A stretch of 64,000 nucleotides of DNA from Myxococcales bacterium (GTDB lineage Bacteria > Myxococcota_A > Polyangia > GCA-2747355): the NCBI GenBank assembly GCA_020431405.1, contig JAGQIK010000362.1, forward strand, positions 9,858 to 73,857. The letters run 5' to 3'. A model generated the notes under the pieces. It saw only the letters and a list, made by a program, of their open reading frames with translations. It was not told the DNA's origin and searched no databases. Position numbers and translations under genes: made by a program. The number at the start of each line of letters is the position of its first letter. Position 1 is the stretch's first letter. Positions 7,527 through 33,447 of the stretch are shown here, one piece after another.

Positions 7527-7539
7527 ATTCTGCTGGGCG

Positions 7540-18424: not shown

Positions 18425-18589
18425 CCAAGTGTCAAGAAAACTGTTGATCAACTTACGAGACGTTGGCACGATGATCATACGCGTACAATTGAGACTGTGG
18501 CGATGTGCCGAAAGGGACGACGCTTGACAGCATTTCGATCGCTACGGCAGCACCAACTGCTATGCGTACGAATTGCGGGAGTAACAGAA

Positions 18590-18831: not shown

Positions 18832-19899
18832 TCATCGCTCGAGACGTTCTGAAACCAGCTTCCTGCACTCACCCGCGATGGCGATTGTCTCTTCGAGCTT
18901 GGCTTTCGACGGACTACTGTCGTTCGGCTCGTAGAGCGCTTGATGCAAGACGTCGAGCTGGGCTTGCATCTCGTCGAGCATCGGCGCGTTGAGCGCGAGG
19001 TGACACCGCTCTTTGACCTGCTGGATCTCCTCGCTGGTCAACGCGGCGGGGACACGCGGCAGCTTGCTGGGCTCCTGCGGCGAGACGGGCTCGTCGCGCG
19101 AATAGCCCAATAGCTCGAGCAATGGGCCTGCCATGGTCGAGATGCCGTGCTTGATGTCGTCAGGCAAGGCTGCTTGCCAACCGCCCGCGCGCCCTTTGCG
19201 AACGTGTCCCGGCGCGGTCTTCTTCATCGACGACACATGAAGCTCACTCGCCATCGCCGCTTTCACGTCGCCCGAGAGCGACACGCCGAGGTAGTCGAGC
19301 AACCGGTCGAGCTCGTTGTCGAAGTCGTGCCGCAGACGCTCGTAGCAGATGATGTGGATATCATGCTGGTCCCTGTGAGCGAGGTAGCCCAAGACGTGGT
19401 TGATCCAGTCCTTAGTCCGCGCCATCCAGCTGTCACGATACTGCTCTTCGATCGACCCCAAGGGGGCGAGGGTGCTGTAGCGCTGTATGTAGGGCATACG
19501 CTGGAAGTGCGCGAACGAGACAACCACATCGCGAACATCGCGCACGATATAGACCGTCTTGTCGAACCGCTCGAGTAGCCGTCCACTCCAAGGGTCCTGC
19601 CACGGCGAGTGGCTCCAGCCATGAGTTGTCTTGCTCGCGAAGTCATCGAGGTCTTCGATGGGCCAGTGGAATATCGCCGGTATCCAGAACCAAATACCGC
19701 GGCGCACGACGCTGATGCAGTCGAGATCTGCTTGGTTTGGAAAGGAGAGATCAGGCCAGGTCTTGAACAGCGGGTAGATCGGCAGCGTGTGGACGTAGCG
19801 CGTGTTGGGCCAACCCGCGCGCTCGACGATCGCGTTGAGCGTCTGATACAGCCAGTAGTTGCCACTCTTCTCGACGCCGATCTGGAGGATCTTGGGCAT
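18832..19899 (-). CDS. Sulfotransferase-family protein (PAPS-dependent). It is a paralogue of the upstream gene.
   Basis: 5'-PSB-like loop IGVEKSGNYWL and 3'-PB motif YIVRDVRDVVVSF. About 355 aa. ATG 4 nt after the upstream gene's stop. Confidence 0.6.
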   Translation of the reverse strand: MPKILQIGVEKSGNYWLYQTLNAIVERAGWPNTRYVHTLPIYPLFKTWPDLSFPNQADLDCISVVRRGIWFWIPAIFHWPIEDLDDFASKTTHGWSHSPWQDPWSGRLLERFDKTVYIVRDVRDVVVSFAHFQRMPYIQRYSTLAPLGSIEEQYRDSWMARTKDWINHVLGYLAHRDQHDIHIICYERLRHDFDNELDRLLDYLGVSLSGDVKAAMASELHVSSMKKTAPGHVRKGRAGGWQAALPDDIKHGISTMAGPLLELLGYSRDEPVSPQEPSKLPRVPAALTSEEIQQVKERCHLALNAPMLDEMQAQLDVLHQALYEPNDSSPSKAKLEETIAIAGECRKLVSERLER

Positions 19900-19903
19900 G
19901 CTA

Positions 19904-20983
19904 TTACTCGACGCCTTCTTCTAGGTCCGATTCAGCTCGAGTGAGCTCCGCAAACGCTTCGAGGCTCGCGACCAGCTTGTCCACCTCGCGCCCTAACACG
20001 CCGCCACCTCTGATCGCAGGAATGTTCGCGAACCACCGCGCCTGCTCGACGGTCTGTGATATGGCGTAGTCGATCGGGACCTCGAGCGCCTCTTCGGTGA
20101 TCTCGGCCAACGCCTCATTGTCTATCTGGTCTGGAACACGCGGCAGCGATGACGGATCGCTCCAGTCCCGCGGAGCGTCATCTAGCGGATAGCCCAGCAG
20201 CTCCAGCAACGGCTCTGCCATATCGGTAATGTCGGCCTTCATCGTGTCCGACAAGCTCTCGCTCCAACCACCGGACTTCCCTGAACGCACATGCGCCGGT
20301 GACGCTGCTTTCATCGTCCTAACAGATACGTCGTCTGCTATTTGGTCGATCTGTGCATCTGACAGAGAGATCTCGAGATAGTCTAGGAGCCTTCGGTATT
20401 CGCTTTGGAAGTCGTACCGAAGGCGCTCGTAGCAGACAAAGTGGATATTGAAACGCTCGCGCTGAGCCAGGTGCTGCGAGACATGTGTTATCCAGTACTG
20501 CGTCCGCAGCAGCCACGCCTTATCGAGGTAGCTGATCGGGTCCTCACTGAGATCGACCATGCTGTAGCGTTGGACAAAGGGCATGAACTGAAAGTGGCAG
20601 AACGACAGCAGTACGTCGCGAGGATCGCGGATGATATAGACGACCTTGTCGAAGCGTTCGAACACCGCCGCGCTTGTTGGTCCAAACCAGTTCGAGTGGG
20701 TCCAAGCGTGGGTCGTCTTGGCCGCAAAGTCATCGAGGTCTTCTATCGGCCAAAAGAAGATCAGCGGAATGTAGTAGAAGACCTTATCGGGCGTGATGTT
20801 AAGAAAGTCGATATCCGGCTGATCGGGAAACGACAGGTCAGGCCACGTCTGGTGTAGTGGATATATCGGGTGGCTACGAGCGTAGCGGCGCCAGGGCAGC
20901 CCGGCAGCCTTGGCGGTCTTGTCGAGGTTGTTGTAGAGCCAGTAGTTACCGCTCTTCTCGACGCCGATCTGCAGGATCTTCAA
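19904..20983 (-). CDS. Sulfotransferase-family protein (PAPS-dependent).
   Basis: IGVEKSGNYWL and YIIRDPRDVLLSFCHF motifs. TTG start. Translationally coupled to the downstream paralogue. Confidence 0.6.
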   Translation of the reverse strand: MKILQIGVEKSGNYWLYNNLDKTAKAAGLPWRRYARSHPIYPLHQTWPDLSFPDQPDIDFLNITPDKVFYYIPLIFFWPIEDLDDFAAKTTHAWTHSNWFGPTSAAVFERFDKVVYIIRDPRDVLLSFCHFQFMPFVQRYSMVDLSEDPISYLDKAWLLRTQYWITHVSQHLAQRERFNIHFVCYERLRYDFQSEYRRLLDYLEISLSDAQIDQIADDVSVRTMKAASPAHVRSGKSGGWSESLSDTMKADITDMAEPLLELLGYPLDDAPRDWSDPSSLPRVPDQIDNEALAEITEEALEVPIDYAISQTVEQARWFANIPAIRGGGVLGREVDKLVASLEAFAELTRAESDLEEGVE

Positions 20984-21069: not shown

Positions 21070-22605
21070 TTGGTCTCTACACGCAACCTGGCTCGACGGC
21101 AGCTGGAGTTGTTGGAACATAGCGGAAATGCACGATACGAAGCTCCGCGCGAGGAAATAAGACGAATGGTCGATTTCAGGTCAAGCGATCCACGATGGCA
21201 CGAGTTGGCCAAGCACTTCTCTCGGTCGCAGGAGCAGCGCTACCACTTACTTGCTGGACTTCCGGTCGACGCGCAGGTGCGCGCCGTGTCTCTCGCGATG
21301 GTGCGTCGATTGGCCGAGGAGCTGCTCGAGTCTGAAAGCGAACCGCTGGCCCGCGGCACGCTGATCGCATTTCGTCAGTTCGACTATCTCGCTTCGGCAG
21401 AGCGCGACGTCTACGAGTGCCAGAGACGCATCGTTCTCGAGGACTCCGACAGCTCGCGCATCACGCCGCAGGGCATGCAGCCGCGTCTGTACCGCGAGAA
21501 GAGTGCGGCGCGCAGGCAACAGATCGCGCAATGGTGGGCCGATCAGAGCGAACAGGTCGCTGAAGCCGCCACGCGCCGGCGATCGGCGCTCTGGGAGATG
21601 GCGCAGGAGCTCGGTCTCGACCCACTCTCCGACTTTCTCACGACCGAGGCGCTCGACCTCGAGACGATCCGCCACACGATCGAGAGCATCGCCCTTCGTT
21701 GCGGCAGCCTGTTTCAGTCGACCTTCGATGCGCTTCGAGAGCGCGAGTATGGCCAAGAGCTCGCCGAGCCATGGGTCGATCTGTGGGCGTTGTTCTTGCC
21801 AACGGCGCCGCTCCCGACGTCGCTCTCTCCAAGCGAGACGTTTCGCCGACTGGCTGATGGAATGGGATTCGCGACGTCTTCGATCTCGATCGACGAGGAG
21901 GCGCGACCGGAGAAAGCACCCATTCCAACCGTCGTGCCTGTTGGCCCTGGCGACATCCGCGTCGCGTTTCAGCCGTTGGGGGCGCTCGCCGATCTGCGGG
22001 CGCTCTTGCACGAGTGTGGGCACGCGCTCCACTACAGCTGCATGGATCAGACGCTGCTGCCCCCCGATCGGCGTCCCTCAGCTGGCGCTGCTGAGGTTCA
22101 CTCTTACTTGCTCCAGACGCTGTTGCTCCAACGCGATTTTCTGGAGGGATTTCTCCAGTGCCCCACCTCGGCAGTCGACGACGCGCTCACCGTGGAGCGC
22201 TTTTTCAACGTCCGCATGCTGGTGCACTTCAGTGCTGCGGCGTTGACCACCATCGAGTTCTGGACGCGTGGACCACTGTCTCAACAGGTGTTGGAAGAGA
22301 CCTACGCCGAGCACTTGAGTCGCTTCACAAACATCGAGTTTCCAGCTCTGACGGCGCGCACACCTTACCCCGCCCATAGTCAGCACGCCTTCACAGCCAA
22401 CGTACACTCGCTAGGCTATCCGCTTGGATATGCGCGGGTCGGGTGGCTTCTCGAGCAGCTCGAGCTGGCTGACGCACCGTGGTGGGGCAATGCAGATGCT
22501 GTGCAGTCGATCGTCACGCCGCACATGCGCACGGGGCGGAACACGACCTTCCCGTTGGAAGCCCTCTCCGTCGACCGCTGGGCTGAACGTCTGAGCTCGG
22601 TGTAG
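21070..22605 (+). CDS. M3-like zinc metallo-oligopeptidase (PepF-like).
   Basis: LLHECGHALHY (HExGHxxH) with a Glu about 24 residues downstream (AAEVHS). 511 aa. Start is uncertain: TTG at 21070 or ATG at 21163. Confidence 0.5.
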   Translation: MVSTRNLARRQLELLEHSGNARYEAPREEIRRMVDFRSSDPRWHELAKHFSRSQEQRYHLLAGLPVDAQVRAVSLAMVRRLAEELLESESEPLARGTLIAFRQFDYLASAERDVYECQRRIVLEDSDSSRITPQGMQPRLYREKSAARRQQIAQWWADQSEQVAEAATRRRSALWEMAQELGLDPLSDFLTTEALDLETIRHTIESIALRCGSLFQSTFDALREREYGQELAEPWVDLWALFLPTAPLPTSLSPSETFRRLADGMGFATSSISIDEEARPEKAPIPTVVPVGPGDIRVAFQPLGALADLRALLHECGHALHYSCMDQTLLPPDRRPSAGAAEVHSYLLQTLLLQRDFLEGFLQCPTSAVDDALTVERFFNVRMLVHFSAAALTTIEFWTRGPLSQQVLEETYAEHLSRFTNIEFPALTARTPYPAHSQHAFTANVHSLGYPLGYARVGWLLEQLELADAPWWGNADAVQSIVTPHMRTGRNTTFPLEALSVDRWAERLSSV

Positions 22606-22623: not shown

Positions 22624-23457
22624 TTAGCCGCTGGTAGATTGATCCACCCCGGCATCCGCGCTGGGGGCGTCAGGGCCAACATCAGGCGAGGCGTCGGGGC
22701 CGACATCAGGCGAGGCGTCGAGCGCGTCGGTTCCGCCGTCAGGCGACGACGGCGCGATTCCATACAAGCCGACCGCGTCGAGGGTCACGTAGTCCGTGAG
22801 GAAGGGTCTGTTCTTGTGCCGGATCTCGGTATTGACGTGCACTATCAGCTTGTCGACGAGCTGAGTCGTTTGCGTTATCGGGATACGGAAGATGCCTGGG
22901 CAAGCGCGTGTCGGATCGTCGCCCTCCCAGACCGTGAAGGGATCTCCGCCGGCAGCTGCGACGGCCTCGACCTTGATCACTGCTCCCGGATTCTCCACCT
23001 CGACGATCTCGATGCCCGTCGCGAACACGGCCGTGCGGTACGAGAGCGTGATGGTTACCACGCCCGCACGCTGGCTGGCCGGAGCCCAAAGCTCGGGAAG
23101 AAACGAGCAAGCTAGGACATCTGGCTCGCCGACGAGCTGCTCGATGCCAAACGGGGTCTCATCCGGTGGTGCCCCCGGCACTTTGAACTCGCTGGTCCCT
23201 TCGCTGCTGGTGGCCCACTGCTTGAGGTTGGGCAGCTCGGCCATGTTGGCTCTCAGTCGTGGATCGATGGAGCAATAGCTCGTCACCCCGTGGCCGAAAG
23301 CGTGAGAGGGACAGATCAGGTTCTGGCTCTTGTCGCAGTCGTCATCAGTCTTGCAGCGCGCTCCGAGGCTGCCGTCGCCGATCGGCTTGCAGCCCGCGAC
23401 AGCGAGGCCGAACAGTAGACATGCCGAGAGGCTAAAATGCGTACTGTAGCGACGCAT
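22624..23457 (-). CDS. Hypothetical Cys-containing lipoprotein.
   Basis: Start taken at MRRYSTHFSLSACLLFGLAVAGC (lipobox) rather than the track start at 23670, which would overlap the upstream gene by 238 nt. Confidence 0.4.
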   Translation of the reverse strand: MRRYSTHFSLSACLLFGLAVAGCKPIGDGSLGARCKTDDDCDKSQNLICPSHAFGHGVTSYCSIDPRLRANMAELPNLKQWATSSEGTSEFKVPGAPPDETPFGIEQLVGEPDVLACSFLPELWAPASQRAGVVTITLSYRTAVFATGIEIVEVENPGAVIKVEAVAAAGGDPFTVWEGDDPTRACPGIFRIPITQTTQLVDKLIVHVNTEIRHKNRPFLTDYVTLDAVGLYGIAPSSPDGGTDALDASPDVGPDASPDVGPDAPSADAGVDQSTSG

Positions 23458-25564
23458 GAAAAGATCGTCCCTGCGCGGGAATCGAGGCTCCCTGAACGCG
23501 ATAGATAGTACTGGCGTTGAGATCTTCGGTGCGATTGTCGAGCAGATTATACCCGCCGACTTGCAGGCGCCAATAACGCCAGGAGAGGGTAACGACCGCG
23601 GTGAGCTCGATCGCCGGCGGAAGAGCAAAAGAAGCGATCTCGTCATTGCCTGCGCCAGCAGTCCCAGCACGGATCGAGACAGGGTAGACGATAAAGCGAT
23701 CGTCGAAGATGCTCATTCGGTTGCGCACCACGAGGCTCATCCACGTCAGGGGCTTCCACATCGCACCCAGCGTGAAGTTTGTTGGCGGTCCAAGGGTCGC
23801 GAAAGGCAAGGACGTTTCATCGGCCCGGTCGTGAGAGAACATGCCAAACAGGGTAATCCGTGGCTTCAAGCGCAGGCGAAAGGTGCCCTGGAAGGAGTGG
23901 ATCGTGTATGCCTCATCCAGCTGAATCGATTGCGTTTGGTAGCTGCTGCCCGTGACCTGGACTTTGCCGAGGACGTTTTCGAGCCGGATGTACGAGTAGC
24001 CCGCCGAAAGCGACAACGACCGCACGAACCGGTCCCCGAACGCGCGTCGGAGGACCAACTGCGTCGAAAGGACGCGGCTGTGCTCGACCGACGGGTCCTC
24101 TAGCCGTCGAAGGAAGCTGGTCGCGGCGCGAGTCGCCGAAAGAAACGGCGGACGCATTCCCTCGTCGTAGTTGACCTTGAGGTGCAATCCTTCGGCGAGC
24201 TTCGCGACCAGCGCTCCCTTGGGGAGGATCGTGGGCTGGTAGTACTGCTCCGAGGCGGCGTTGAGGCGCGCGCCTGCCGACACGATAATGCGACTCCCGA
24301 TACGGAGCTCGTCGAAGACGTAGACTGAACCGATGAGAATGTTCGCCCCGTCTGTGTAGGGAATGGGGGTGGGCGTGCCCGTAGCAGGCGCCGTAAGCGT
24401 CGTGTCGGACGCAGCAACGAGCAGGCCCTCGACGCCTACGGTCAGTTGGTTGTTTGGAAAGATCTTGCTGGAGAACGTGTCGTTTCTCCGGTACTCGCCG
24501 ATCAGGTCGAGGGTCTGGTAGCTACCCAGGATCACGCCTTCATCGACGAAGCGAGATGGCGTTCCACCGCCGAGGCGTCCCGCATACGAGAAGGGTGTGT
24601 AGCGGTACGACGCCTTGAGCAGCAAGCTGCTGGACTGCGTCAGCTCCGGCGTGTAGCTCAGGTGGACCATTTGAAACGGCTGCGACCAGCGCGTGGCGCG
24701 CCCGTCTATCAGTGGCTGCCCCTGACCGGTGAACGTCTTACGATCCACCTCGACCATCAGCCGGCCATACAGCTCCAGATCGTAGGCTCGCGCTCGAAGC
24801 GACAGCGAAGCAAACGAGTCACTGCGGTTGAGCGTTAGCCGGTCTTGAGTATCGAACTGGGGGACCACGTTGAGAACGACTGTTGGCTGGTAGATCAGCA
24901 GGTCACCGCCGCGCCGCAGCGTCAGCGAGGCGTGTCCGTAGACTGACAAGGGGCCATAGGTGCCACCGTGCGACACCGAGTACTTCTGAAGGCCAAATGA
25001 GCCCAGGCGCACACGCGCCTTTGTACCCTTGTTTCGCTGGCCATCCTTCGTGACGATGTTGACGACGCCGAGCCAGGCGTTGGCACCCCAGAGCACGCCT
25101 CCAGGGCTCGCAAAAATCTCAATGCGGTTCACGACGTCGAGGTCGAGCTGATACTCGATCGGCGTGCTGGCCTGAAACAGATTGTTGATCGGCGTACCGT
25201 TGATCATGATCAACGCCGCGGCGGGCACGCCGCGGGTACGCGCGTTGTCGTGCTCTACGAAATACGCGTAGGTGTAGCCGAAGCCGGGCGTGTTGCGCAG
25301 AACGTCAGCGACGGTGCGGTATCCCAGCGTGACGAGCTCATCCGCCGTGATGACGGTGACGATCGCCGGTACATCATCGACGCTGGCCGCTTGCGGGGTG
25401 GACTGTAGGATCAGGGAGGCGATTTCGTCTTCGCGGGGCCCACTACGCGTCTTGTTGGCCTCCGACTCGACGGTGGCGGGCGGCTTCGCGAGCGCGGTAG
25501 GCAGCAGCAACCCAGTTGCGAGGATTGCTGCCGACCACCGTGCCAGAAGCCTTAGAGGCAGCAC
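23432..25564 (-). CDS. TonB-dependent outer-membrane receptor-like protein.
   Basis: Signal peptide. Plug-domain-like TVITADELVTLGYRTVADVLRNTPGF. 710-aa beta-barrel length. C-terminal aromatic residue (…LQYAF). Confidence 0.5.
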   Translation of the reverse strand: MLPLRLLARWSAAILATGLLLPTALAKPPATVESEANKTRSGPREDEIASLILQSTPQAASVDDVPAIVTVITADELVTLGYRTVADVLRNTPGFGYTYAYFVEHDNARTRGVPAAALIMINGTPINNLFQASTPIEYQLDLDVVNRIEIFASPGGVLWGANAWLGVVNIVTKDGQRNKGTKARVRLGSFGLQKYSVSHGGTYGPLSVYGHASLTLRRGGDLLIYQPTVVLNVVPQFDTQDRLTLNRSDSFASLSLRARAYDLELYGRLMVEVDRKTFTGQGQPLIDGRATRWSQPFQMVHLSYTPELTQSSSLLLKASYRYTPFSYAGRLGGGTPSRFVDEGVILGSYQTLDLIGEYRRNDTFSSKIFPNNQLTVGVEGLLVAASDTTLTAPATGTPTPIPYTDGANILIGSVYVFDELRIGSRIIVSAGARLNAASEQYYQPTILPKGALVAKLAEGLHLKVNYDEGMRPPFLSATRAATSFLRRLEDPSVEHSRVLSTQLVLRRAFGDRFVRSLSLSAGYSYIRLENVLGKVQVTGSSYQTQSIQLDEAYTIHSFQGTFRLRLKPRITLFGMFSHDRADETSLPFATLGPPTNFTLGAMWKPLTWMSLVVRNRMSIFDDRFIVYPVSIRAGTAGAGNDEIASFALPPAIELTAVVTLSWRYWRLQVGGYNLLDNRTEDLNASTIYRVQGASIPAQGRSFHASLQYAF

Positions 25565-25567
25565 TGA

Positions 25568-26215
25568 TTAACCGCCTGAGCCTGCGTCCATGCCACCGTC
25601 ACCCGTCGAGGGCGGCGGGCGGCCGATAAGAATATCGGGGACGGTCGCGGTTCCACCGGCCGTCACAGTGACTTCTTTGAGGCCAGCGTTGGGTCCGGCT
25701 GGCGGAATGCTCAGGTCGTTGGCGCCCGGCGGAGGCGTTGGCGGAGGAGTCTCCTCCATCCACGCGCCGACGTACACTTTCACGCCGGAGGGAACACCGG
25801 TGACGGTGAACGCGACTGCGGAGGCCGCGGTGCTGAGGTCGGCATTGGGGACGTCGATGGTCGCCACGGTCTGCGACAGCGGCGGAGAGCTATTGGCATC
25901 CTGAACGAAGATGCGGATCGTGCCCTTGCAGTCTGTGTCCGCCGTCGTGCCGCACACGAGGTTCGGCGTGGGTTTGACCATACCGGTGAGGGTGCCTGTT
26001 GCGGCGGCTTCGCCGACGGCATCCGGGGCGGTGTCTGGCGAAGCATCGGGCGCGACGTCGGGAGTGGCGTCTGGAGGCGCAGCTTCTTTCGCCGCGTCCT
26101 TGCCCATGTCGGTGCCCGCTTCTGGCTTCGCCGGGTCGTCGTCGCTGCATGCGCCCACGACAAGCAGCAAGCTGAGGGCAGCTAGACAGGTTACAGCATG
26201 ACGTAAGATTCTCAC
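25568..26215 (-). CDS. Pro/Ala-rich lipoprotein (hypothetical).
   Basis: Lipobox LLVVGAC. PDATPDVAPDASPDTAPD repeats. Confidence 0.4.
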   Translation of the reverse strand: MRILRHAVTCLAALSLLLVVGACSDDDPAKPEAGTDMGKDAAKEAAPPDATPDVAPDASPDTAPDAVGEAAATGTLTGMVKPTPNLVCGTTADTDCKGTIRIFVQDANSSPPLSQTVATIDVPNADLSTAASAVAFTVTGVPSGVKVYVGAWMEETPPPTPPPGANDLSIPPAGPNAGLKEVTVTAGGTATVPDILIGRPPPSTGDGGMDAGSGG

Positions 26216-26253
26216 TTGTTTGTCCTCCTATGCGCGGTCAGAGCCGCTTCGAG

Positions 26254-27042
26254 TCATTGCGTCTTACAGCTGGTGCCGTTGGGACAGCAGAGGTGGTAGT
26301 CGTAGCCGAGGCCGCTGATGAAGTTGAAGCACTCGAAGCCTGCGTCGCAGGGCGTCGTGTTGGCGCCGCCGGGATAGGTATCGCACGGGGCGCGGCACAC
26401 GCCGGTCCCCTGACCGCCGTCGGGCACGCAGCGGTGGGGGTATTCGCAGAGCTCGTCTGGGTCGTTGATGTTAAAGACGGCACATGCTTCGCCCAGCTTC
26501 TTGGGTCCAGTAAATGTGCAGGACTTCCCGCCGCTGGCCGGTGAACAGTAGCTGCCTGGCGGGCAGTTGCTGGCGTCGGTGCTCGTGCAATCGATGTTCT
26601 TGAAGCAGCCGGCGGAGAGCAGGTTGGGCGTAGGCAGCTTGATCTGAGTTCCGGCGCAGTCGCCGCCCTTGGTTGGCGACGGGACGCAGGTCTTGATGCA
26701 CGTGAAAATGAACTCGGTCGCTTCGAAGCAGACCTCGGTCGGCCCACAATCCGCGTCCGTGTTACAGCGCTTGCGGGGCACTGTGTGGAACGGCATCGGA
26801 GGCTCCCAGGTGTTGTCGAAGTAGCCGGTCTTCTCGAACTCCGCGCACGTCAGGGGCGTGAACACGTACGCGTCGGGCCGTGGCCCGTCGACGTCTGAGC
26901 CCACGTCCTTGGGCGGCGGTAGGTCGGGACGTAGGATGTCCAAAGCGGTGTCGCCGCGCAGCGGCGCCGCGCGTTTGTCACGATCGCAACCAGCGGCCAT
27001 GCTGATCACGACCGAGAGGAGCAGAATGCGGGACGCAACCAT
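26254..27042 (-). CDS. Cys-rich secreted lipoprotein (hypothetical).
   Basis: Lipobox ISMAAGC. About 28 Cys in 262 aa. Confidence 0.45.
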   Translation of the reverse strand: MVASRILLLSVVISMAAGCDRDKRAAPLRGDTALDILRPDLPPPKDVGSDVDGPRPDAYVFTPLTCAEFEKTGYFDNTWEPPMPFHTVPRKRCNTDADCGPTEVCFEATEFIFTCIKTCVPSPTKGGDCAGTQIKLPTPNLLSAGCFKNIDCTSTDASNCPPGSYCSPASGGKSCTFTGPKKLGEACAVFNINDPDELCEYPHRCVPDGGQGTGVCRAPCDTYPGGANTTPCDAGFECFNFISGLGYDYHLCCPNGTSCKTQ

Positions 27043-27152
27043 GGCGTAAATACTCTCAAAGTTGGGGCAAGCCTGTCAACAATTTGGGGTCTGCGGTGCG
27101 TGCTCGAGCAAGTTGACCGGCGTGCTTTTCGTAAGTCGTGGTACGAACGCGT

Positions 27153-28694
27153 TCAGTAGCTTAACAGCAGGTAGCCCTTCTCCTCGAACCAGCCAAGCTC
27201 GCCCATCTCGAGCTCGTACAGGTACTCGTTGCCGGTCATGTTGCGCTCGACGTTGCGTCGCATGTCCGGCACCAGATCGCGCGCGAGGTAGCGCAGCTGG
27301 TAGAAGCGCTTGACCATGTCAGCGGGCGTGCTGTTCGTGTTGATGTGGGTGAGGTATTCGCGCGGCTTCGCGGCGAACTCCTCCTCGGTGACATATCGCT
27401 TGCTCAGCTGGCTCCAGCGCTGCCAGCCCTCGAGCGTATTCACAAGCACGTCGATGTCGTAGGCGCTCGGGTCGTCCGCAAACTTCGTACCAGGCGTCAC
27501 CATCAGATTCTCGATCCAGTAGATCTGACCGCCGAGCGCGACGACCTCGCGCATGGCTTCGTACGTCTCGCGAAACTCGCTGGCCGTCTCGCCAGGAAGG
27601 TTCGCGATCCAAGCCGTCAGCACCATGCCGCCCATGTCGCTGATCAGTCGCACGGCGTCCAAGATCTGCTCGCGCGACGAGCCGCGTCCAGTTCGCTTGA
27701 GCACCGACTTGGAGGCGCTCTCGCAACCCATCGTGAAGCGGACGAAGCCTCCATCGACCAGATTGCGTACGAGCTCGGGTCGCTTGAACAACACCGGGTG
27801 CGTCTCGAGGCGCACCGTGATGTCGAGGCCTGATGCGGCGAGCGCTTCGGCGAGCTGGCCGACGTAGCGCGGGTAGACGAACTCGCTCTCGCCGAGGAAG
27901 ATCTCTTTGAAGCCCAGTTTCTCGTAGGTGCGGATCTGCTCGATGACCCTGTCTACCGAGACGGTAGAGAGAGGTCGACGAAAGAACGACTGCCGATTGG
28001 CGACGCAGTAGCCGCATTGAAAAGGACAGAGCCCTCGCGCGATGTTGATGAACGCGCCGTAGCCCCACGTCACGTCGTCGAACGGTGGCGCGTCGGCGTT
28101 AACGATGGGCAGCTCCTCCATCGGCACGAGCGATCCGTCAGCCGGTTCGATGTAGCGTGTTCCCTGCGGGGTGCGGTGCCAGGCGCCCGCGACGGTCGTG
28201 TGGTCCTTGCCCGCGAGGGCAGCGCGGGTCAGCTCGAGCGCGGGCACCTCGCCCTCGCCCTGCACGAGCCCGTTGAGCGACGGATAGGTGGCGAGGAACT
28301 TCTCGGCGAAGCACGCACCGAAGATCCCGCCCAGATAGATCAGCGAGTCTGGATGTAGCCGGCGGTACCGCTCGGCGATCTGCGGAGCGCCGTTGCTATA
28401 GAGGTGCCAGTGCGCTTGGATGCCGACCCACGCAGCGGGATGGGCGGCGAGAATCGCGTCCAGGTCCCACTCGAGGTCGTTGTCCTCGACGAACAGGCGC
28501 TCCGAGTCCATGTGCAGCAGCTTCACGCGCAGGCCGTTGTCGTGAAGAAACTGCGCGATCGACAGCATCCCTATCGGTGCGTTCGACTCGAGGGTGAGGC
28601 CCGAGTCTCGAGGTGTTCCATCGGCCTCGTAACCGTGATGGGGTGCGATGAGCAGAGCGTCGTACTCGCCGCCGCGTCCATGAAATGCGACCAC
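27153..28694 (-). CDS. B12-binding (class B) radical SAM enzyme, a putative C-methyltransferase or similar maturase.
   Basis: CPFQCGYC (CxxxCxxC). A …FTMGCESASKSVLKR… radical SAM core. A Rossmann-like N-terminal domain (LTVVAFHGRGGEYDALLIAP…). Start taken as the GTG at 28694, which is preceded by AAGGA. The track ORF extends to 28898, overlapping the YcaO gene. Confidence 0.65.
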   Translation of the reverse strand: MVAFHGRGGEYDALLIAPHHGYEADGTPRDSGLTLESNAPIGMLSIAQFLHDNGLRVKLLHMDSERLFVEDNDLEWDLDAILAAHPAAWVGIQAHWHLYSNGAPQIAERYRRLHPDSLIYLGGIFGACFAEKFLATYPSLNGLVQGEGEVPALELTRAALAGKDHTTVAGAWHRTPQGTRYIEPADGSLVPMEELPIVNADAPPFDDVTWGYGAFINIARGLCPFQCGYCVANRQSFFRRPLSTVSVDRVIEQIRTYEKLGFKEIFLGESEFVYPRYVGQLAEALAASGLDITVRLETHPVLFKRPELVRNLVDGGFVRFTMGCESASKSVLKRTGRGSSREQILDAVRLISDMGGMVLTAWIANLPGETASEFRETYEAMREVVALGGQIYWIENLMVTPGTKFADDPSAYDIDVLVNTLEGWQRWSQLSKRYVTEEEFAAKPREYLTHINTNSTPADMVKRFYQLRYLARDLVPDMRRNVERNMTGNEYLYELEMGELGWFEEKGYLLLSY

Positions 28695-28717
28695 CGTCAG
28701 TCCTTTTGATTCGTCAT

Positions 28718-30850
28718 CTACACGACGGGGGGAGGTAACCAACCCCTGCTCGGCAGCGACGCAACGCCGTGACGCCACAGTCGGGACCGTCCAAGGCGTG
28801 GCGTGCCGAAGTGCAGTGGTAGAAGTCCCGGTACCAACGCCCGCACGACGCGCAGTGACGTGTTGTGCGAAATGTCGGTCGTCGTGATGTCGACCCACTT
28901 CACAGTATGCCCGTGGTCAGCGAGGAAGGCCACGAGTTCGTCCAAGGTGAGCGTACGCGAGCGGCGCGATGAAAAAGCTCCACCTGCTCCACGACCAAAC
29001 CAATCCGCGGTGGAGTGGTGGCCGGGTGTCGCGTAGAGCTTGAGCACTTCCGCCGGCCGTGTCGGATGCTCCATGAGCGGCACCTCGTCGAGAATGCCCG
29101 CGGTAAACAGCCTGCCTACGCTTTCGAGCTCGTCGAGCACATGCTCGATGGCTCCCTCCACATCAGCGCGTGCCGCAGAGGCCAGCCAGCATGCTGGTCC
29201 CGCTGGTGAGTCGATCGGCACGAAGACGAGCGCTCCGAGCACCGTCACGACATCGAGCTGCGTGGTCAAGTCGAGCAGGCGCACGTCCGCGTTCAGCGAC
29301 TGTTCCAGCTGTCGCAGCCGTTGCAGCGCGCCGCCTGGTAACGTTTCGGCGACGATGGTCGGCGGAGCTTTGCCCCGAAGCCACCAGTACAATATGGCGT
29401 CGCGTTCGAGGAGCTCGAGGACAGCGTTTTGGATGGCCGCAGCGAGACGCGTGTGGGCGGCAACGCCGCTGCTCGTGTTGAGCACCATCGGTCTCTCGTG
29501 CCATGGCACTAAGCGCACGAAGTCGTGCGGTACGAGCTGCGCCCCGTCATCGGTCAAGTCGAAACACCAGTTCCAGTCGTAGCCTCGAAGCGGGTCGAAC
29601 GGCTGAGCCAGCAGTTGGGCGCCGTACTGAGATTGGTGATAGAGGGTCAGCTCATCGGGGTCGATGGCTTGCCCTGCCAGTGATTTTTGCGTGTGTGCAC
29701 GCACCGCCGGTGGGACGGAGAACATGCAGTAGCGCTCGACCGCTTCGGCCGCCGCCAGCAACGAGGCGCGCGCCGCGGGAGTGGCGTCGTTCGAGCTCAC
29801 CAGCGGGCCCTGCCAGGTGTTGACTTCGATGTGGTAGCCACTCGCGTCACGCACCGCGGCGTTGAAGATGCCGAGAGCAGGGGCGACCAGCCGCTCGACT
29901 TGACGCTGAACCGAGCGTGGGGGCGCTGCGGGGTCAGTGGGTGTGGCGTACGCGCGAAGTTGTCGTTGGGGCGAAGGCGGGGTCAGCTGATCTGCTCCAC
30001 GGCAAGCGGTGCATAGCGGATGTGAGATCAGGCTGGACACTGATCGCGCGCCATCGATCAGTCGTGTCACTGTCACACGGTCGCCCGGTTGCGCTGAGCA
30101 CGCCCATTGGAGCGTTGCTTCGGCGACGACAAGGCTCGCCATCATCGCCGCTGGTGTGGGGAGCTGTGGCTGTTGCAGCTCCTGGCACAACCCCCAGCGG
30201 AACCATCCCGTCCGAAGCGCGAGACATTCGAAGCAGGTGGGCGTCTTGTCCGTGACGAGCGGACCGACCCATACCTCGCTTCCGACGACGGCGGCAAACA
30301 GCACGCGGGCACGTCCCTGACGCGCCGCGCGGTTTAGCACCAACATCTTTTCGAGCACGGCGGTGTCAGGCGTGGCGAGGATCGCGAGGACCCGTCGCCC
30401 GAGCTTGGTCGAGGTCAGCGAAGCGGTGGCGATTTCCATCGACCCTCGCAACGCCTCCGCGACGCTCTGCGCGATGCGCTCGTCGTCTGCCGCGATGTGC
30501 ACCGTGCCACTGGTCGACCGCGATCTAGTGTCCGGAACCAGATGCCAGTAGGGCGCGGGGCGCTTGACGAGCTGAGCCGAGCCATCGACGGGCAACAACA
30601 CACCCAGCTCGGCGAGCTCCTCCAAGAAGGCTGAGACTTCGTCCGCTGGCAGACCGACACGGCGCGCCGCCACGTCCGCGTTGACCGGCCGTCGCGTGGC
30701 CTGCAGGACGCTCCATAGCGTCTGCACCTGCTGTGCGTCGTCGACGACCATCTCGCGTCCAGGCAGCGCGATCAGCAATTGATTGCCGCTGTGCTCGACA
30801 CATGGCCGCAGCGATACGCGAACGTCGCCTGCCAATCGATAGGTTTGCAT
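28718..30850 (-). CDS. Fused E1-like (leader-peptide-binding) / YcaO-domain protein, PatD/TruD-type cyclodehydratase-like.
   Basis: N-terminal RRE/E1-like region with a CFEC motif. C-terminal YcaO signature SSGVAAHTRLAAAIQNAVLELLERDAILYWW. About 710 aa from the ATG at 30850, which lies 17 nt after the upstream stop. Confidence 0.65.
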   Translation of the reverse strand: MQTYRLAGDVRVSLRPCVEHSGNQLLIALPGREMVVDDAQQVQTLWSVLQATRRPVNADVAARRVGLPADEVSAFLEELAELGVLLPVDGSAQLVKRPAPYWHLVPDTRSRSTSGTVHIAADDERIAQSVAEALRGSMEIATASLTSTKLGRRVLAILATPDTAVLEKMLVLNRAARQGRARVLFAAVVGSEVWVGPLVTDKTPTCFECLALRTGWFRWGLCQELQQPQLPTPAAMMASLVVAEATLQWACSAQPGDRVTVTRLIDGARSVSSLISHPLCTACRGADQLTPPSPQRQLRAYATPTDPAAPPRSVQRQVERLVAPALGIFNAAVRDASGYHIEVNTWQGPLVSSNDATPAARASLLAAAEAVERYCMFSVPPAVRAHTQKSLAGQAIDPDELTLYHQSQYGAQLLAQPFDPLRGYDWNWCFDLTDDGAQLVPHDFVRLVPWHERPMVLNTSSGVAAHTRLAAAIQNAVLELLERDAILYWWLRGKAPPTIVAETLPGGALQRLRQLEQSLNADVRLLDLTTQLDVVTVLGALVFVPIDSPAGPACWLASAARADVEGAIEHVLDELESVGRLFTAGILDEVPLMEHPTRPAEVLKLYATPGHHSTADWFGRGAGGAFSSRRSRTLTLDELVAFLADHGHTVKWVDITTTDISHNTSLRVVRALVPGLLPLHFGTPRLGRSRLWRHGVASLPSRGWLPPPVV

Positions 30851-30867
30851 CGAGCAGCTACGAAGCG

Positions 30868-33447
30868 TTAGCTCAGCATCCGTGCGAGCAGCTCCTCGCA
30901 GCCTGTGACCTCGTGCCCCTCGTTGCCCATGAACTCGTCGACCTGCGACACGGAATAGCCTCGCTGCCGCATCTCGCAATACTGCGCGAGCTCTGGCGAG
31001 ATCTCGAACACGCGTAGGGTCAGCGCGGCGCGCATGCAGTACTGGTCGCCGCTGCGCCAGACAGAGTACGGATTGCTGGTGTTGATGGGTTCGGCTGGCG
31101 GACCGCACTGCTCTACCGCGTCGTCGAACGTCAATCCGGCGTTCGCGACGAAGGGAATAGAGATCTCGAAGTTGTCGGTTGGCGCGCCGTCCTGCATGTG
31201 ACGATGAAGGTCGATGTAGATCTCGTGGCCGGTGTGGAACGCTTCTACGACCATGCTGCGCGTTGCCCGACGCCGTTGCAGGTCACAAAACTGCTCCTCG
31301 GAAAGCGGCGCCGTACACAGGCAGCGCGAGCATCGCTCGAATGCGACGCACGACTCGCAGCCTCTGCGTGCGGTCGTCTCGTTCAGGATCCGCTCGAACG
31401 CCTGCCCTACGGCGTCCATGCTCGGCGTGGTGGCATCGACCAGACCGCAGCCGCTCATGCATGGCGAGAAGCGCCCGCTGTCGTCAGAAAGGGCGACGAC
31501 AAACCCTTGCGTCGAAGGGCAGGGCTCGGCCGCCCAGCGGCAGCTGTCCAAGAACAAGAACCACGATTCTGTCAGCCAGCCAGGCATTCTGAGGTAGCCG
31601 GTACGAGCCGCGCGCGCGTTGAGTCGATCAAATGCCTCGAGGTCGTGCTCGTTGGCGACATCCAACAGCCATATGCAGTAGCGGTTGGAGCTGCGTGGCA
31701 GCGTCGCGGGCGGCTCGTCGACAAGCTCGCCATCGCCGTTTTCGATGAGCCTGATGCTGATCGTGGGGCTGTCACAGACCGCGTTGAGCGGGTCCTCCTT
31801 GCCGCGTGGCGCCGGAGTCTCGCTCGAGCGAGGCTTGCCGCCGAGGACCGTGACGTGCAGCGGGCTTGCTTCGAGCCAGTGCTCGTACGTGCTCAGTGGC
31901 TGTTCGGCGAAGCGGAACATCGGCGCAGTCGCGGGGGCGATGTCCATCAACGGTGTCGGATTGGTGACGGAGGCAACGGCCGGCATCATCAGCGTGTCGA
32001 GGTCGAGCGTGGGAGCGTGCAGTAGCGTTCGAACGCCAGGGATGATCAGTCCAACCATAGGAGCCGGATCCCATCGGTTCTCTATGACCTCCCAGACGTC
32101 ACCGATGTCGTATTCGGCGTCATGGATCTGCAGCAGGCTCTTCTCGAGACGCGGCAGGTATTCGTCTCGCCGCTGGTCGAACAGGAGGAGCCCTGGCACT
32201 AGGGCCAGCAGATTCTGGTTGGTGTCGTCTGCGCCGATCGATTTGGCGAAGCGCACCGTTTCGCGAAACTCGTCTGCGCTTTGGTCGGGAATGCCAAACA
32301 TCATTCCGCAGCCAGTATGAAACCCGATCTCGTTTGCTGTCGTCACGACGCTGCGAAGGCGCTCGAGGTAGCCTTCTTCGCGCTTGTACTCGCCGTCGAT
32401 ACCTCTCTTGTGCACGACCTTGCCGAGACGACGTAGCGTTTCGGGCCCCGACGACTCGAGACCGAACGTCACCATGCGGAAGCCGGCATCAAAGAGGTGC
32501 TGCAGCATCTCGCCATTGATGCTCTCGGCTCGCGTCTCGAAGCCGAAGTGGAGCGCGAACTGTTCGGCAGCCATTCGGTCGAGCAGCTCGTCGAGCTTGC
32601 TCTTTGGTCGAGCGGTGAAGAGCAGGTCCATCAAGAACATGATCTTCAGCTCGTGAAGGCCGGTGGTCTTGTCGATTCCCCGGAAGAGGCCGTGGTCTGC
32701 TTCGCCGCGCTTGTCAGCCGCGACGAACACGTCGTTGATGTGGCTGAGATCGTCGATGACCCGGTCGGTGGAGAAGTAGCGCATGCTCGCGACGTAGTTT
32801 CTGCAGTGGCAGAACCCGCACTTGTACGCGCAGCCGATGGAGGTCGTGTAGTAGTACGGATGGTGTCCATCATCTGCGCCGTACTTCCAAGGCGGTGGGA
32901 TGATGTCGAGCTCGGCAAATCGCTCGCACGCTGGCCACGGCTCCGCTGGCGTCTCGACGTATTCGGCCCCCTTGGGCTCGGTTCGAAATACTAAGCTGCC
33001 GACGCGGTCGAGCAGCCCACGCTTGGCGTCGGCGCGTTCGAATAGCGCAAGCACGGACCAGTAGGGGTCGTAGCGAACGCAGGCGTCGAGCGGCGGGTTG
33101 TTGTCGAGGAACCAGGCAGGTTCGTGGGTCGCGTAGTCGCCCGACGCGATCTGCAGGATGTCCGGGCGACGCTCTCGCAACCCAGCGCCGAGCCATTTCA
33201 TCAGAAAATACAGCTGGGTTCCGGATGGTTGCCGGGGCGATTCGACGAAGAAGTGAACCACCTTGAGGTTGCGGTTCTCGCACAGCTCGTCGAGCAGCGC
33301 CCGTCTCGACTGGTGCAGCGACAGCACGACGCAGCCGGCTGTCCGGATCCCGCGGCTTTCGAGGATGCTTCGGCAGAAGCTCGCCTCGCGCAGACTGGCC
33401 GCGACGGTGCCGGCCCCGTCAGTAACTGCGAGGTATGTGCATGTCAT
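30868..33447 (-). CDS. B12-binding radical SAM enzyme with a C-terminal Cys-rich extension of about 350 aa.
   Basis: SIGCAYKCGFCHC (CxxxCxxC). An …FGLESSGPETLRRLGK… core. C-terminal CESCVAFERCSRCLC cluster (SPASM/twitch-like). Start is uncertain: ATG at 33447 or GTG at 33483. Confidence 0.65.
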   Translation of the reverse strand: MTCTYLAVTDGAGTVAASLREASFCRSILESRGIRTAGCVVLSLHQSRRALLDELCENRNLKVVHFFVESPRQPSGTQLYFLMKWLGAGLRERRPDILQIASGDYATHEPAWFLDNNPPLDACVRYDPYWSVLALFERADAKRGLLDRVGSLVFRTEPKGAEYVETPAEPWPACERFAELDIIPPPWKYGADDGHHPYYYTTSIGCAYKCGFCHCRNYVASMRYFSTDRVIDDLSHINDVFVAADKRGEADHGLFRGIDKTTGLHELKIMFLMDLLFTARPKSKLDELLDRMAAEQFALHFGFETRAESINGEMLQHLFDAGFRMVTFGLESSGPETLRRLGKVVHKRGIDGEYKREEGYLERLRSVVTTANEIGFHTGCGMMFGIPDQSADEFRETVRFAKSIGADDTNQNLLALVPGLLLFDQRRDEYLPRLEKSLLQIHDAEYDIGDVWEVIENRWDPAPMVGLIIPGVRTLLHAPTLDLDTLMMPAVASVTNPTPLMDIAPATAPMFRFAEQPLSTYEHWLEASPLHVTVLGGKPRSSETPAPRGKEDPLNAVCDSPTISIRLIENGDGELVDEPPATLPRSSNRYCIWLLDVANEHDLEAFDRLNARAARTGYLRMPGWLTESWFLFLDSCRWAAEPCPSTQGFVVALSDDSGRFSPCMSGCGLVDATTPSMDAVGQAFERILNETTARRGCESCVAFERCSRCLCTAPLSEEQFCDLQRRRATRSMVVEAFHTGHEIYIDLHRHMQDGAPTDNFEISIPFVANAGLTFDDAVEQCGPPAEPINTSNPYSVWRSGDQYCMRAALTLRVFEISPELAQYCEMRQRGYSVSQVDEFMGNEGHEVTGCEELLARMLS

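Follow-up and report, generated by a model that had tools for sequence, protein, structure and literature searches.

A lipoprotein and TonB-dependent transporter gene block within a putative RiPP cluster of a Myxococcales bacterium, and its possible role in outer-membrane transport

Gene organization of the locus

The window analysed here, a stretch of 64,000 nucleotides from an uncultured myxobacterium, carries on its minus strand, between positions 22624 and 27042, a block of four co-directional genes, one for a divergent TonB-dependent transporter (TBDT) and three for lipoproteins with a lipobox (Table 1). The original prediction had placed a co-directional run of Cys-rich lipoproteins and a TonB-dependent receptor behind the maturase genes, and this layout was confirmed, the four ORFs following 110 nt downstream. 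In all four, the in-frame GC3 (0.72-0.83) exceeds the GC2 (0.47-0.59) in a genome of 65% G+C, a periodicity which indicates genuine coding sequences; this GC3 does not set the block apart from the rest of the sequence between 15.5 and 64 kb. From the 262-aa gene through the 215-aa gene and the TBDT to the 277-aa gene, the successive spacings are 38 nt, 3 nt and a 26-nt overlap, an operon-like arrangement. The TBDT start is a GTG which gives a signal peptide, and the maximal ORF of the 277-aa gene extends to 23670. This last gene is convergent with that of the M3-like metallopeptidase, with 18 nt between the stops.

Table 1. Features of the locus, in positions of the window
Feature	Position	Strand	Evidence or remark
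Three tandem cassettes of about 375 nt, candidate RiPP precursors	17840-18733 (small ORFs 17840-17965, 18213-18362, 18590-18733)	+	
Sulfotransferase	18832-19899	-	PF00685; between precursors and four-gene block
Sulfotransferase	19904-20983	-	PF00685; between precursors and four-gene block
M3-like metallopeptidase	21070-22605	+	HExxH (HECGH); weak TIGR02289 match around HExxH
Fourth lipoprotein, 277 aa	22624-23457	-	GC3 0.76
Divergent TBDT, 710 aa	23432-25564	-	PF07715 Plug
Pro/Ala/Asp-rich lipoprotein, 215 aa	25568-26215	-	GC3 0.72
Cys-rich lipoprotein, 262 aa	26254-27042	-	GC3 0.83
Gap from B12-rSAM stop to Cys-lipoprotein ATG, 110 nt	27043-27152	-	sequence
B12-binding radical SAM	27153 to about 28700	-	PF04055 and PF02310
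Fused E1-like/YcaO cyclodehydratase	28718-30850	-	PF02624; TIGR03604 and TIGR03882 matches
Class-B-like radical SAM, 871 aa	30868-33483	-	PF04055
HAL2-type 3'(2'),5'-bisphosphate nucleotidase (PAP phosphatase)	37642-38670	+	TIGR01330, 276.5 bits (cut-off 267)

The block sits in the middle of a larger RiPP cluster extending from about 17.8 to 50 kb. On one flank lie the precursors, the two sulfotransferases and the peptidase, and on the other the maturases (a run from 27153 to 33483, preceded by a terminator-like palindrome at 33507-33537), the PAP phosphatase, proteases and HlyD adaptors, the genes at 41-50 kb being those of an M16 protein, an M50/PqqD/HlyD fusion, an HlyD protein and an FAD oxidase. 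PAP phosphatase is the expected partner of PAPS-dependent sulfotransferases, and here it is found on the far side of the block from them.

The candidate precursors lie 4 kb from the block. In each cassette a Shine-Dalgarno site precedes a small ORF, and a GC-rich hairpin with a T-run behind it lies downstream; the consensus scan lists the hairpins of copies 2 and 3, and that of copy 1 was read from the sequence. The ORFs have a GC3 of 0.71-0.82, compared with a GC1 of 0.42-0.43, and encode Cys-free peptides of the form M[AS]KKTKKTKKKVSLKVKEL[ED]N[VL]R...RSRVGAWSTSW, with a conserved Lys-rich leader, an identical SRVGAWSTSW end and Ser/Thr in the core.

The proteins of the block

The three proteins other than the TBDT all match the PROSITE-type lipobox pattern (LSVVISMAAG-C, ALSLLLVVGA-C and CLLFGLAVAG-C) and, owing to these Sec/lipobox signals, are predicted to be exported and lipid-anchored. 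In the 262-aa lipoprotein, the signal peptide and lipobox (Cys19) are followed by a Pro/Asp-rich linker and a Cys domain of about 170 residues; Asp at position +2 is an inner-membrane retention signal by the E. coli rule. Its cysteines, put at about 28 in the original prediction, number 23, of which 22 come after the lipidated one, and 21 conserved ones make up the domain as three 6-Cys modules and a CC...C tail. The family is tiny (about 260-270 aa): among 1.84 billion representatives the only relatives were P0123 and P0124, the latter having P0126 as its full-length form, which gives two further full-length members. All three members carry the signal peptide and lipobox, and the 21 cysteines are invariant among them at 35% identity, together with conserved Cys spacing, Gly and Pro, so that the region looks like a structural disulfide domain. 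We infer that these cysteines form disulfides, either in the periplasm or on the surface of the cell, and are not azoline precursors.

The 215-aa protein, described beforehand as a Pro/Ala-rich lipoprotein, does deserve the name: its 27 Pro and 33 Ala amount to 28% of the sequence, and lipobox Cys23 and a low-complexity linker precede a beta-rich C-terminal region of about 120 residues. The further Cys-containing lipoprotein was likewise borne out, the 277-aa protein having a lipobox (Cys23), a Cys knot of the CKTDDDC type, a beta-rich middle and a Pro/Asp-rich tail. None of the three lipoproteins matched Pfam, NCBIfam or PDB sequences, and a search of 5.8 billion proteins with the 277-aa sequence returned only itself, making it an orphan. 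Structure prediction for the lipoproteins gave pLDDT values of 38-39, the AF2 model of the 277-aa protein (pLDDT 38) being unusable. The lipoproteins of the block are lineage-specific orphans, or nearly so.

The assignment of the 710-aa protein as a TonB-dependent receptor holds. Its Plug domain PF07715 scores 54 bits (cut-off 23.9), it has a signal peptide and a C-terminus ...LQYAF ending in Phe, and TBDTs bearing PF00593 align with it at 24-29% identity across 73-89% of its length; PF00593 itself was undetected in the protein even at E<=10. All substrate-specific NCBIfam models scored far below cut-off, and an N-terminal signalling extension is absent.

The 110-nt gap upstream of the block

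On the minus strand, the gap between the B12-rSAM and Cys-lipoprotein genes contains TTGACA at 27079-27074 and, after a spacer of 18 nt, GAGTAT at 27055-27050; another 7 nt lead to the ATG at 27042. The sequence put forward as a promoter is therefore present, but GAGTAT matches TATAAT at only three of six positions, for which reason the consensus scan did not list the site, and sites resembling promoters are no more frequent than chance would give: between 17 and 36 kb the scan found 4 sites against 3.0 +/- 1.6 in shuffles, and TTGACA with any weak -10 was counted twice in the window, about one being expected. By sequence alone the gap promoter is not distinguishable from chance; a promoter of their own for the Cys-rich genes is possible. 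No terminator was found in the gap, nor any structured RNA (fold z = -0.06), and no Rfam family, riboswitches including the cobalamin one among them, matched anywhere in the window.

Relatives of the block and comparable systems

The nearest relatives of the TBDT come from six uncharacterised Myxococcota loci. In four of them (L002, L004, L012 and L014) two lipoprotein genes come after that of the TBDT, one for a small product (175-187 aa) and one for a product with Cys (370-395 aa, 9-15 Cys). In L006 the two lipoproteins, one of 309 aa and one of 372 aa with 18 Cys, are encoded upstream of OmpA/TSP3 and TBDT genes, and L013 shows just the counterpart of the Cys-rich gene, since its contig ends there. 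TBDTs of this clade are always accompanied by their own pair of lipoproteins, of which one contains Cys, so that lipoprotein partners are normal for the clade. The block shares this combination but differs from these cassettes in gene order, and its lipoproteins are not homologous to theirs (blastp; hhalign probability below 4%). Radical SAM, YcaO and precursor genes are absent from all six contexts, the neighbours being kinase, VIT1 or OmpA/TSP3 genes in non-RiPP settings. As for the 262-aa lipoprotein, the one homologue with genomic context (L015) has neither YcaO nor TBDT nearby. It is found 283 nt upstream of a radical SAM-SPASM enzyme resembling PapB/QhpD/SCIFF, a thioether-forming group; with the QhpD model this enzyme reaches 174 bits, against a cut-off of 453. 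Taken together, these contexts argue against a conserved link with rSAM/YcaO genes, and genome and metagenome collections yielded no close relative of either the YcaO or the B12-rSAM. The proposed association of block and maturases is reasonable as a grouping (same strand, 110 nt, no terminator, cluster genes on the flanks).

In TbpA/TbpB, SusC/SusD and BtuB/BtuG, a TonB-dependent barrel is encoded beside ligand-capturing lipoproteins. The block resembles these pairs in its general architecture and departs from them in that its lipoproteins have no family match. Closer to a RiPP setting, methanobactin operons encode a TBDT, MbnT, which takes a secreted ribosomal peptide back up, and some of them also encode a PF00685 sulfotransferase, MbnS, for modification of a Thr in that peptide (PMC3621798). 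The window likewise combines a TBDT with a pair of PF00685 sulfotransferases and a core containing Ser/Thr. Unlike methanobactin operons, it showed no match to MbnB (DUF692/MNIO) or MbnC and no FecIR-type regulators among the ORFs scanned, its TBDT lacks the N-terminal signalling extension, and it combines a YcaO, two class-B rSAMs and Cys-free precursors with three lipoproteins beside the TBDT.

Alternative explanations

Because the TBDT relatives occur in non-RiPP contexts, the block could be a mere bystander: a common myxobacterial cassette for the uptake of nutrients or metals, placed beside RiPP genes and without a role in the product. The orphan character of its lipoproteins and the possible promoter in the gap agree with this idea, which we take seriously and nevertheless hold to be unlikely: cluster genes flank the block on both sides, it follows the maturases in the same direction with no terminator between, and dedicated TBDTs are known from other RiPP operons. 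Supply of a cofactor, in which the TBDT and lipoproteins would import cobalamin for the two upstream B12-type radical SAM enzymes, as BtuB does in Bacteroides together with BtuG, a lipoprotein of the cell surface, is suggested by the adjacent PF02310 B12-binding rSAM, by the second, class-B-like one and by weak, non-specific matches of the plug region to BtuB models. The TonB-B12/BtuB models reach only 41-47 bits, however, with cut-offs of 600-836, the window has no cobalamin riboswitch, and the lipoproteins have no detectable family, so nothing ties them to BtuG; we regard this explanation as very improbable. Even less credit can be given to an outer-membrane exit or shield for the cluster product formed by the TBDT-like barrel and its lipoproteins. 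The cluster has HlyD-type adaptors while an outer-membrane channel was not identified within the window, and a secretion role has reportedly been proposed for Oar, a TBDT-like protein of Myxococcus; against this, nearly every TBDT studied is an importer, and the 710-aa protein is without Oar-type domains, PF25183 appearing in a few distant matches only.

The original prediction also regarded the Cys-rich lipoprotein as what the cyclodehydratase would act on. In such a scheme the 262-aa protein would receive YcaO azolines or rSAM methylation or cross-links in the cytoplasm before export and lipidation. Its gene does lie immediately downstream of the B12-rSAM, and both Cys-lipoprotein loci with context adjoin a radical SAM gene, an adjacency in L015 which the transport model does not explain. 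QhpD, a radical SAM-SPASM enzyme, cross-links the Cys-containing periplasmic QhpC (gamma subunit of quinohemoprotein amine dehydrogenase) before export, and the L015 pair recalls it; here, however, the rSAMs are of the B12 type rather than SPASM enzymes, Qhp genes are absent, and the L015 score is far below cut-off. A signal peptide and a large size are compatible with RiPP status, since bufferin precursors carry Sec signals (PMC11626156), DAG-RiPP precursors carry lipoboxes, with related secreted substrates above 30 kDa (PMC13056109), and these Cys precursors are modified in the cytoplasm, then exported or lipidated (PMC11626156, PMC13056109). The layout of a lipoprotein beside maturases is similar, but in those systems the modifying enzymes are MNIO (DUF692) proteins acting with partners, and the conserved Cys motifs are short, whereas the neighbours here are YcaO and rSAM, which PMC13056109 does not name, and the 21-Cys pattern looks structural. 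Moreover, the radical SAM classes of the two loci differ, the homologous locus is without YcaO, an informal reading of the 262-aa sequence noticed no leader-like element common with the three small peptides, and one extra rSAM adjacency would arise by chance in about 1% of cases (a rough post hoc estimate). The cluster offers instead three tandem, Cys-free, classic-looking precursors, which are more likely YcaO/rSAM substrates than this lipoprotein. Its role as substrate thus seems improbable to us.

Proposed role

We lean, with modest confidence, towards reading the block as a transport module of the cell envelope, expressed together with the RiPP cluster and serving it by outer-membrane transport. 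Co-expression with the maturases would come about by read-through and/or by a weak promoter giving a leaderless mRNA. The YcaO and rSAM enzymes would act on the small peptides with the Lys-rich leader and not on the 262-aa lipoprotein. By analogy with MbnT in methanobactin operons, the TBDT would most likely recognise and re-import the mature peptide, possibly sulfated and possibly metal-loaded, and the lipoproteins may be its partners in capturing the ligand or handing it off.

The block and its genomic setting

The block lies on a 90,101-bp contig of a Myxococcales bacterium assembled from a metagenome (NCBI locus tags KC503_*), with a G+C content of about 65%, and since long chance ORFs are common at high G+C, the codon-position composition was checked. 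In frame, all four block ORFs present a GC3 of 0.72-0.83 and a GC2 of 0.47-0.59, and a sliding codon-position analysis tracks exactly their frames: the four ORFs are real genes, and the co-directional minus-strand run of the original prediction is borne out. Their spacing is operon-like, with 38 nt between genes 1 and 2, 3 nt between genes 2 and 3 and a 26-nt overlap between genes 3 and 4. For the 277-aa protein we retained the Met that yields a signal peptide, the same start as NCBI's. The three proteins other than the TonB-dependent transporter (TBDT) all match the PROSITE PS51257-type pattern, a signal peptide whose end forms a lipobox, with Cys at +1, and are predicted bacterial lipoproteins; the same pattern is found in the upstream 537-aa protein and in P0123, a homologue of the Cys-rich lipoprotein.

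Coordinates of the block genes, the candidate precursors and other genes of the surrounding region
Feature	Position	Strand	Remarks
Candidate RiPP precursor ORF, copy 1	17840-17965	+	Shine-Dalgarno site; hairpin and T-run read from sequence
Candidate RiPP precursor ORF, copy 2	18213-18362	+	Shine-Dalgarno site; GC-rich hairpin and T-run listed by scan
Candidate RiPP precursor ORF, copy 3	18590-18733	+	Shine-Dalgarno site; GC-rich hairpin and T-run listed by scan
Two PF00685 sulfotransferases	18832-20983	-	
HExxH M3-like peptidase	21070-22605		convergent with fourth lipoprotein gene
Fourth lipoprotein, 277 aa	22624-23457	-	ORF; maximal ORF to 23670
TBDT, 710 aa	23432-25564	-	ORF
Lipoprotein, 215 aa	25568-26215	-	ORF
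Cys-rich lipoprotein, 262 aa	26254-27042	-	ORF
HAL2-type PAP phosphatase	37642-38670	+	TIGR01330, 276.5 bits vs cut-off 267
703-aa protein	39256-41367	-	no Pfam or NCBIfam match
FAD_binding_4 oxidase, 539 aa	41448-43067	+	GC3 0.81

Downstream, the block is followed by the peptidase gene, beyond which come the two sulfotransferase genes and then the three precursor genes; upstream lie the three maturases, a lipoprotein and an OmpA/TSP3 protein, and further genes on that side encode HlyD, an M16 peptidase and a PqqD/intramembrane HExxH protease/HlyD fusion. PAP phosphatase removes the by-product of PAPS-dependent sulfotransferases. The sulfotransferases on one side of the block and the expected phosphatase on the other provide the best single argument for placing the block inside one functional island, and they suggest a sulfated peptide product and a cluster that extends over 17.8-38.7 kb or more. 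The 703-aa protein, which stands beside protease and export genes, could be another cluster enzyme. A 427-aa ORF (41430-42713, minus strand) is probably spurious, its codon-position composition being wrong for a gene (GC1 0.81, GC3 0.66); the real gene here is that of the oxidase. Further along, a plus-strand run at 56543-63235 encodes the shikimate pathway (DHQ synthase, DHQase/shikimate dehydrogenase, an EPSP synthase-shikimate kinase fusion and chorismate synthase) and is probably housekeeping; aromatic amino acids are products of this pathway, and the candidate precursor core has two Trp.

The Cys-rich lipoprotein and its family

The Cys-rich lipoprotein had been credited with about 28 Cys; the count is 23, of which 22 lie beyond the lipidated residue, enough for 11 disulfides. 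Searches of Pfam, NCBIfam and PDB sequences with the three block lipoproteins returned no match at lenient thresholds: of named Cys-rich domains, Pfam yielded only DX (E=0.038) and Lustrin (E=6.8), both under cut-off, and the curated Cys-repeat models of NCBIfam (Myxococcus cysteine-rich repeat and others) gave nothing at E<=0.1. AlphaFold2 single-sequence models of the Cys-rich and fourth lipoproteins were unusable (pLDDT 39 and 38, respectively). The Cys-rich protein found nothing but itself in a word-indexed search of 5.8 billion proteins, and so did the fourth lipoprotein in the 5.8-billion-protein search.

When 1.84 billion representatives were scanned exhaustively with HMMER, two relatives of the Cys-rich protein appeared: P0123 (274 aa, encoded on a 1.2-kb contig and equipped with signal peptide and lipobox) and P0124 (142 aa). 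A cluster look-up in other assemblies added P0126, an intact 263-aa lipoprotein with the lipobox LLPAAC, and P0125, a matching N-terminal fragment. Together, these searches, in a library that derives from about 15 billion predicted proteins, gave three full-length family members. In all three, a lipobox signal is followed by a linker, acidic or rich in Pro, and by a domain of ~170 aa, in which 21 of 21 Cys (C93 to C259 in the window protein) are invariant at 35% overall identity, alongside several Gly and Pro; this pattern is the signature of a predicted exported, disulfide-knotted domain. P0124, which has no signal peptide, was considered as a cytoplasmic, precursor-like form of the Cys domain and rejected, being a truncated allele of P0126. 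The contigs of four other assemblies all start 57-123 nt upstream of one shared point inside the Cys-lipoprotein gene, which suggests that an insertion or repeat split the homologous gene into P0125 and P0124.

The Cys-rich protein is the basis of a new, very small lipoprotein family that repeatedly adjoins radical SAM genes: both members with genomic context have a peptide-modifying radical SAM gene within 300 nt on the same strand, in otherwise unrelated loci. In L015, the locus of a homologue, the lipoprotein gene lies 283 nt upstream of a radical SAM/SPASM gene whose best matches are the thioether-forming maturases PapB, nif11 maturase, QhpD, SCIFF and CcpM. Radical SAM genes make up well under 1% of genes, and from this fraction the chance of one extra adjacency is, as a post hoc estimate, roughly 1%. 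The gene order of L015 (1-5009) is an ECF-sigma tail, a 272-aa anti-sigma-like protein, a secreted C14 (caspase-like) peptidase, the Cys-lipoprotein, the PapB/QhpD-like radical SAM-SPASM protein and a 323-aa membrane or lipoprotein.

Candidate substrates of the maturases

The proposal that the YcaO cyclodehydratase acts on the Cys-rich lipoprotein is not supported: its architecture resembles that of a disulfide-bonded domain, YcaO is missing from the homologous locus and better precursors are encoded nearby. Neither a YcaO nor a TBDT gene occurs from -2.5 kb to +10 kb in L015 (with the homologue locus L008 for the downstream side). Precursors of TOMMs are short peptides with a leader that the E1-like/RRE domain recognises and a core rich in Cys/Ser/Thr, and several or conserved copies of their genes usually stand next to the cyclodehydratase gene; at 262 aa the lipoprotein is long, it starts with a Sec/lipobox signal, and no leader common to it and other genes was noticed.

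This TOMM pattern fits three tandem peptides, the candidate YcaO substrates. They are encoded by three tandem cassettes of ~375 nt in a low-G+C gap at 17.6-18.8 kb and comprise 41-49 aa, with Ser and Thr present and Cys absent. Their Lys-rich N-terminus is invariant in 3/3 (M[AS]KKTKKTKKKVSLKVKEL; common leader motif MSKKTKKTKKKVSLKVKEL...), their middle varies and their C-terminal RSRVGAWSTSW is identical, which as a predicted layout is the classic leader/core pattern; they are likely to be the real RiPP precursors in this cluster. Since the YcaO has a fused leader-binding E1-like domain (TIGR03882 and TIGR03604 matches), it fits short leader-bearing peptides, and the likely maturase substrates are the three SRVGAWSTSW peptides rather than the Cys-rich lipoprotein. 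Searches of the genome collection with the YcaO and the precursor alignment returned no relative, nor did searches of the metagenome collection with the Cys-lipoprotein alignment and the B12-type radical SAM.

A signal peptide, a lipobox and a large size are by themselves compatible with RiPP status, because bufferin precursors have Sec signals (PMC11626156) and DAG-RiPP precursors have lipoboxes, with related substrates exceeding 30 kDa (PMC13056109). As both family members with context adjoin a radical SAM gene, the 21-Cys lipoproteins might be protein-sized radical SAM substrates, which would receive thioether, methyl or azoline groups in the cytoplasm before export and lipid anchoring. We consider this improbable: DAG-RiPP and bufferin systems, as defined (PMC13056109, PMC11626156), use MNIO enzymes, with a partner protein, beside a signal-peptide precursor with a conserved Cys motif, whereas no MNIO matched in the ORFs scanned in the window, and the radical SAMs of the window and of L015 belong to different classes. 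If true, DAG-RiPPs and bufferins, which MNIO enzymes make, would have in the 21-Cys family their first counterpart made by rSAM/YcaO enzymes.

The TonB-dependent transporter and its relatives

The 710-aa protein contains a Plug domain (PF07715, residues 62-167, 54 bits against a cut-off of 23.9). The PF00593 barrel was undetected by Pfam even at E<=10, and the protein aligns over 73-89% of its length, at 24-29% identity, with PF00593-bearing Myxococcota TBDTs. It starts with the signal peptide MLPLRLLARWSAAILATGLLLPTALA and ends in ...LQYAF, with a terminal Phe; no TonB box was identified with confidence before the plug. Among the substrate-specific TBDT models of NCBIfam (BtuB, FepA, FhuA, MxcH, PqqU and others) the best score was 63 bits against cut-offs of 223-1200, with matches confined to the plug.

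Six contexts of the nearest TBDT relatives were examined. In four (L002, L004, L012 and L014), the TBDT is followed by a 175-187-aa lipoprotein and by one of 370-395 aa that contains 9-15 Cys. L006 has two lipoproteins, one of 309 aa and one of 372 aa with 18 Cys, upstream of an OmpA/TSP3 protein and the TBDT, and L013 is similar, with only the Cys-rich gene visible upstream (17 Cys in 361 aa, truncated where the contig ends). The cassette order in these two loci is lipoproteins, OmpA/TSP3, TBDT, VIT1. None of the six contexts contains radical SAM or YcaO genes. The lipoproteins of these cassettes form two families of their own (alignments A3 and A4), to which the window lipoproteins present no homology by blastp or hhalign. 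In Myxococcota, the TBDT and its two Pfam-less lipoprotein families make up a conserved cassette that is apparently uncharacterised and often has a Ser/Thr kinase as neighbour. Judged from these gene orders, partner lipoproteins are the normal state for this TBDT clade, independent of RiPP enzymes, which explains the lipoproteins around the window TBDT without any cyclodehydratase.

The OmpA/TSP3 gene at 35367-37184 shares 36-37% identity with those preceding the TBDT homologues in L006 and L013, which suggested that an ancestral OmpA-lipoprotein-TBDT cassette had taken up the maturases. This idea was rejected: a second OmpA/TSP3 gene (4529-6649), far from the TBDT, matches the L006/L013 proteins equally well (234 against 227 bits), and the similarity is therefore generic.

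The 110-nt gap and the transcription unit

Between the stop of the B12-type radical SAM gene and the block lie 110 nt on the same strand, in which we found no terminator and no unusual RNA structure (z = -0.06); no Rfam element, cobalamin riboswitch included, was found in the gap or in the rest of the window. A strong terminator-like hairpin, a 14-bp GC-rich palindrome between A and T runs readable on both strands, is located at 33507-33537 between the gene of the 537-aa lipoprotein and the first maturase gene; the palindrome also produces weak spurious Rfam leader/sRNA matches. Because the gap has no terminator and this hairpin precedes the first maturase, everything between 33483 and 22624 could be transcribed as a single unit.

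The Cys-rich genes had also been proposed to have their own promoter. The hexamers are there (TTGACA-18 nt-GAGTAT at 27079-27050), with a perfect -35 and an 18-nt spacing; the -10 is weak, GAGTAT matching TATAAT at 3/6, and the promoter is a putative one. A sigma-70 type promoter should show -35 and -10 hexamers 16-18 nt apart and exceed chance, and promoter-like sites are at the shuffle level: the consensus scan listed four, without TTGACA-18-GAGTAT, against 3.0 +/- 1.6 in shuffles, and a looser count gave two against about one expected. With 7 nt between GAGTAT and the ATG, the mRNA would be leaderless. The same geometry is seen at 37194-37160 (minus strand), where TTGACA-16 nt-TATCAT is followed after 6 nt by ATG 37160 of the OmpA/TSP3 gene, the start that gives this protein its signal peptide. 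The whole window contains eight perfect TTGACA hexamers on both strands.

Proposed function of the block

Grouping the block with the maturases, as originally done, is reasonable: the genes are co-directional, 110 nt and no terminator separate them, and cluster genes lie on both sides. GC3 gives this grouping no support. It is 0.88-0.93 for the genes at 4529-15490 and 0.72-0.85 nearly everywhere from 15507 to 64000, so that an island boundary in GC3 or G+C marking the block was rejected, the whole stretch of 15.5-64 kb being alike; the step at 15.5 kb may mark different gene histories or expression levels. The TBDT relatives whose contexts contain no RiPP enzymes would suit a block that is an unrelated neighbour of the cluster; in view of the sulfotransferases and the PAP phosphatase that flank it, we hold this to be unlikely, while giving it more weight than any other alternative. 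That the block supplies cobalamin to the two B12-type enzymes of the cluster is very improbable, given a TBDT far below the BtuB cut-off and a window devoid of cobalamin riboswitches. Export or self-protection, for which the neighbouring HlyD genes might speak and the nature of the TBDT does not, appears the least probable of all.

We favor a block that would be an envelope transport operon belonging to the cluster and co-expressed with it, by read-through and possibly from an additional weak promoter. Its most likely task would be to recognise the mature peptide and bring it back into the cell, the lipoproteins serving as binding or hand-off partners. The uptake route suggested by the original prediction has a precedent in methanobactin, whose operon is the closest documented analogue: MbnT re-imports the copper-loaded peptide, and in some methanobactin operons a Thr is the target of a PF00685 sulfotransferase (PMC3621798). 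The window shares with these operons only a TBDT and sulfotransferases; the large ORFs scanned in the window gave no match to DUF692 (MbnB/MNIO) or MbnC, so that the window is not a methanobactin operon. The step from a position inside the cluster to re-import of its product is one that we infer.

The arrangement would be that of a RiPP cluster having its own TBDT, here a divergent one accompanied by three lineage-specific lipoproteins. Attention moves from the Cys-rich lipoprotein to the three SRVGAWSTSW peptides as likely substrates, and the surrounding cluster (peptides with a Lys-rich leader, YcaO, two class-B radical SAMs, two sulfotransferases) may be of greater interest than the block. 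If the block serves the cluster, it would represent, after methanobactin, a second kind of ribosomal-peptide system with dedicated TonB-dependent uptake, with a chemistry (YcaO, two B12-type radical SAMs, sulfotransferases) unlike that of methanobactin, and it would suggest that an uncultured myxobacterium secretes a peptide, for example a metal carrier or a signal, and takes it back.
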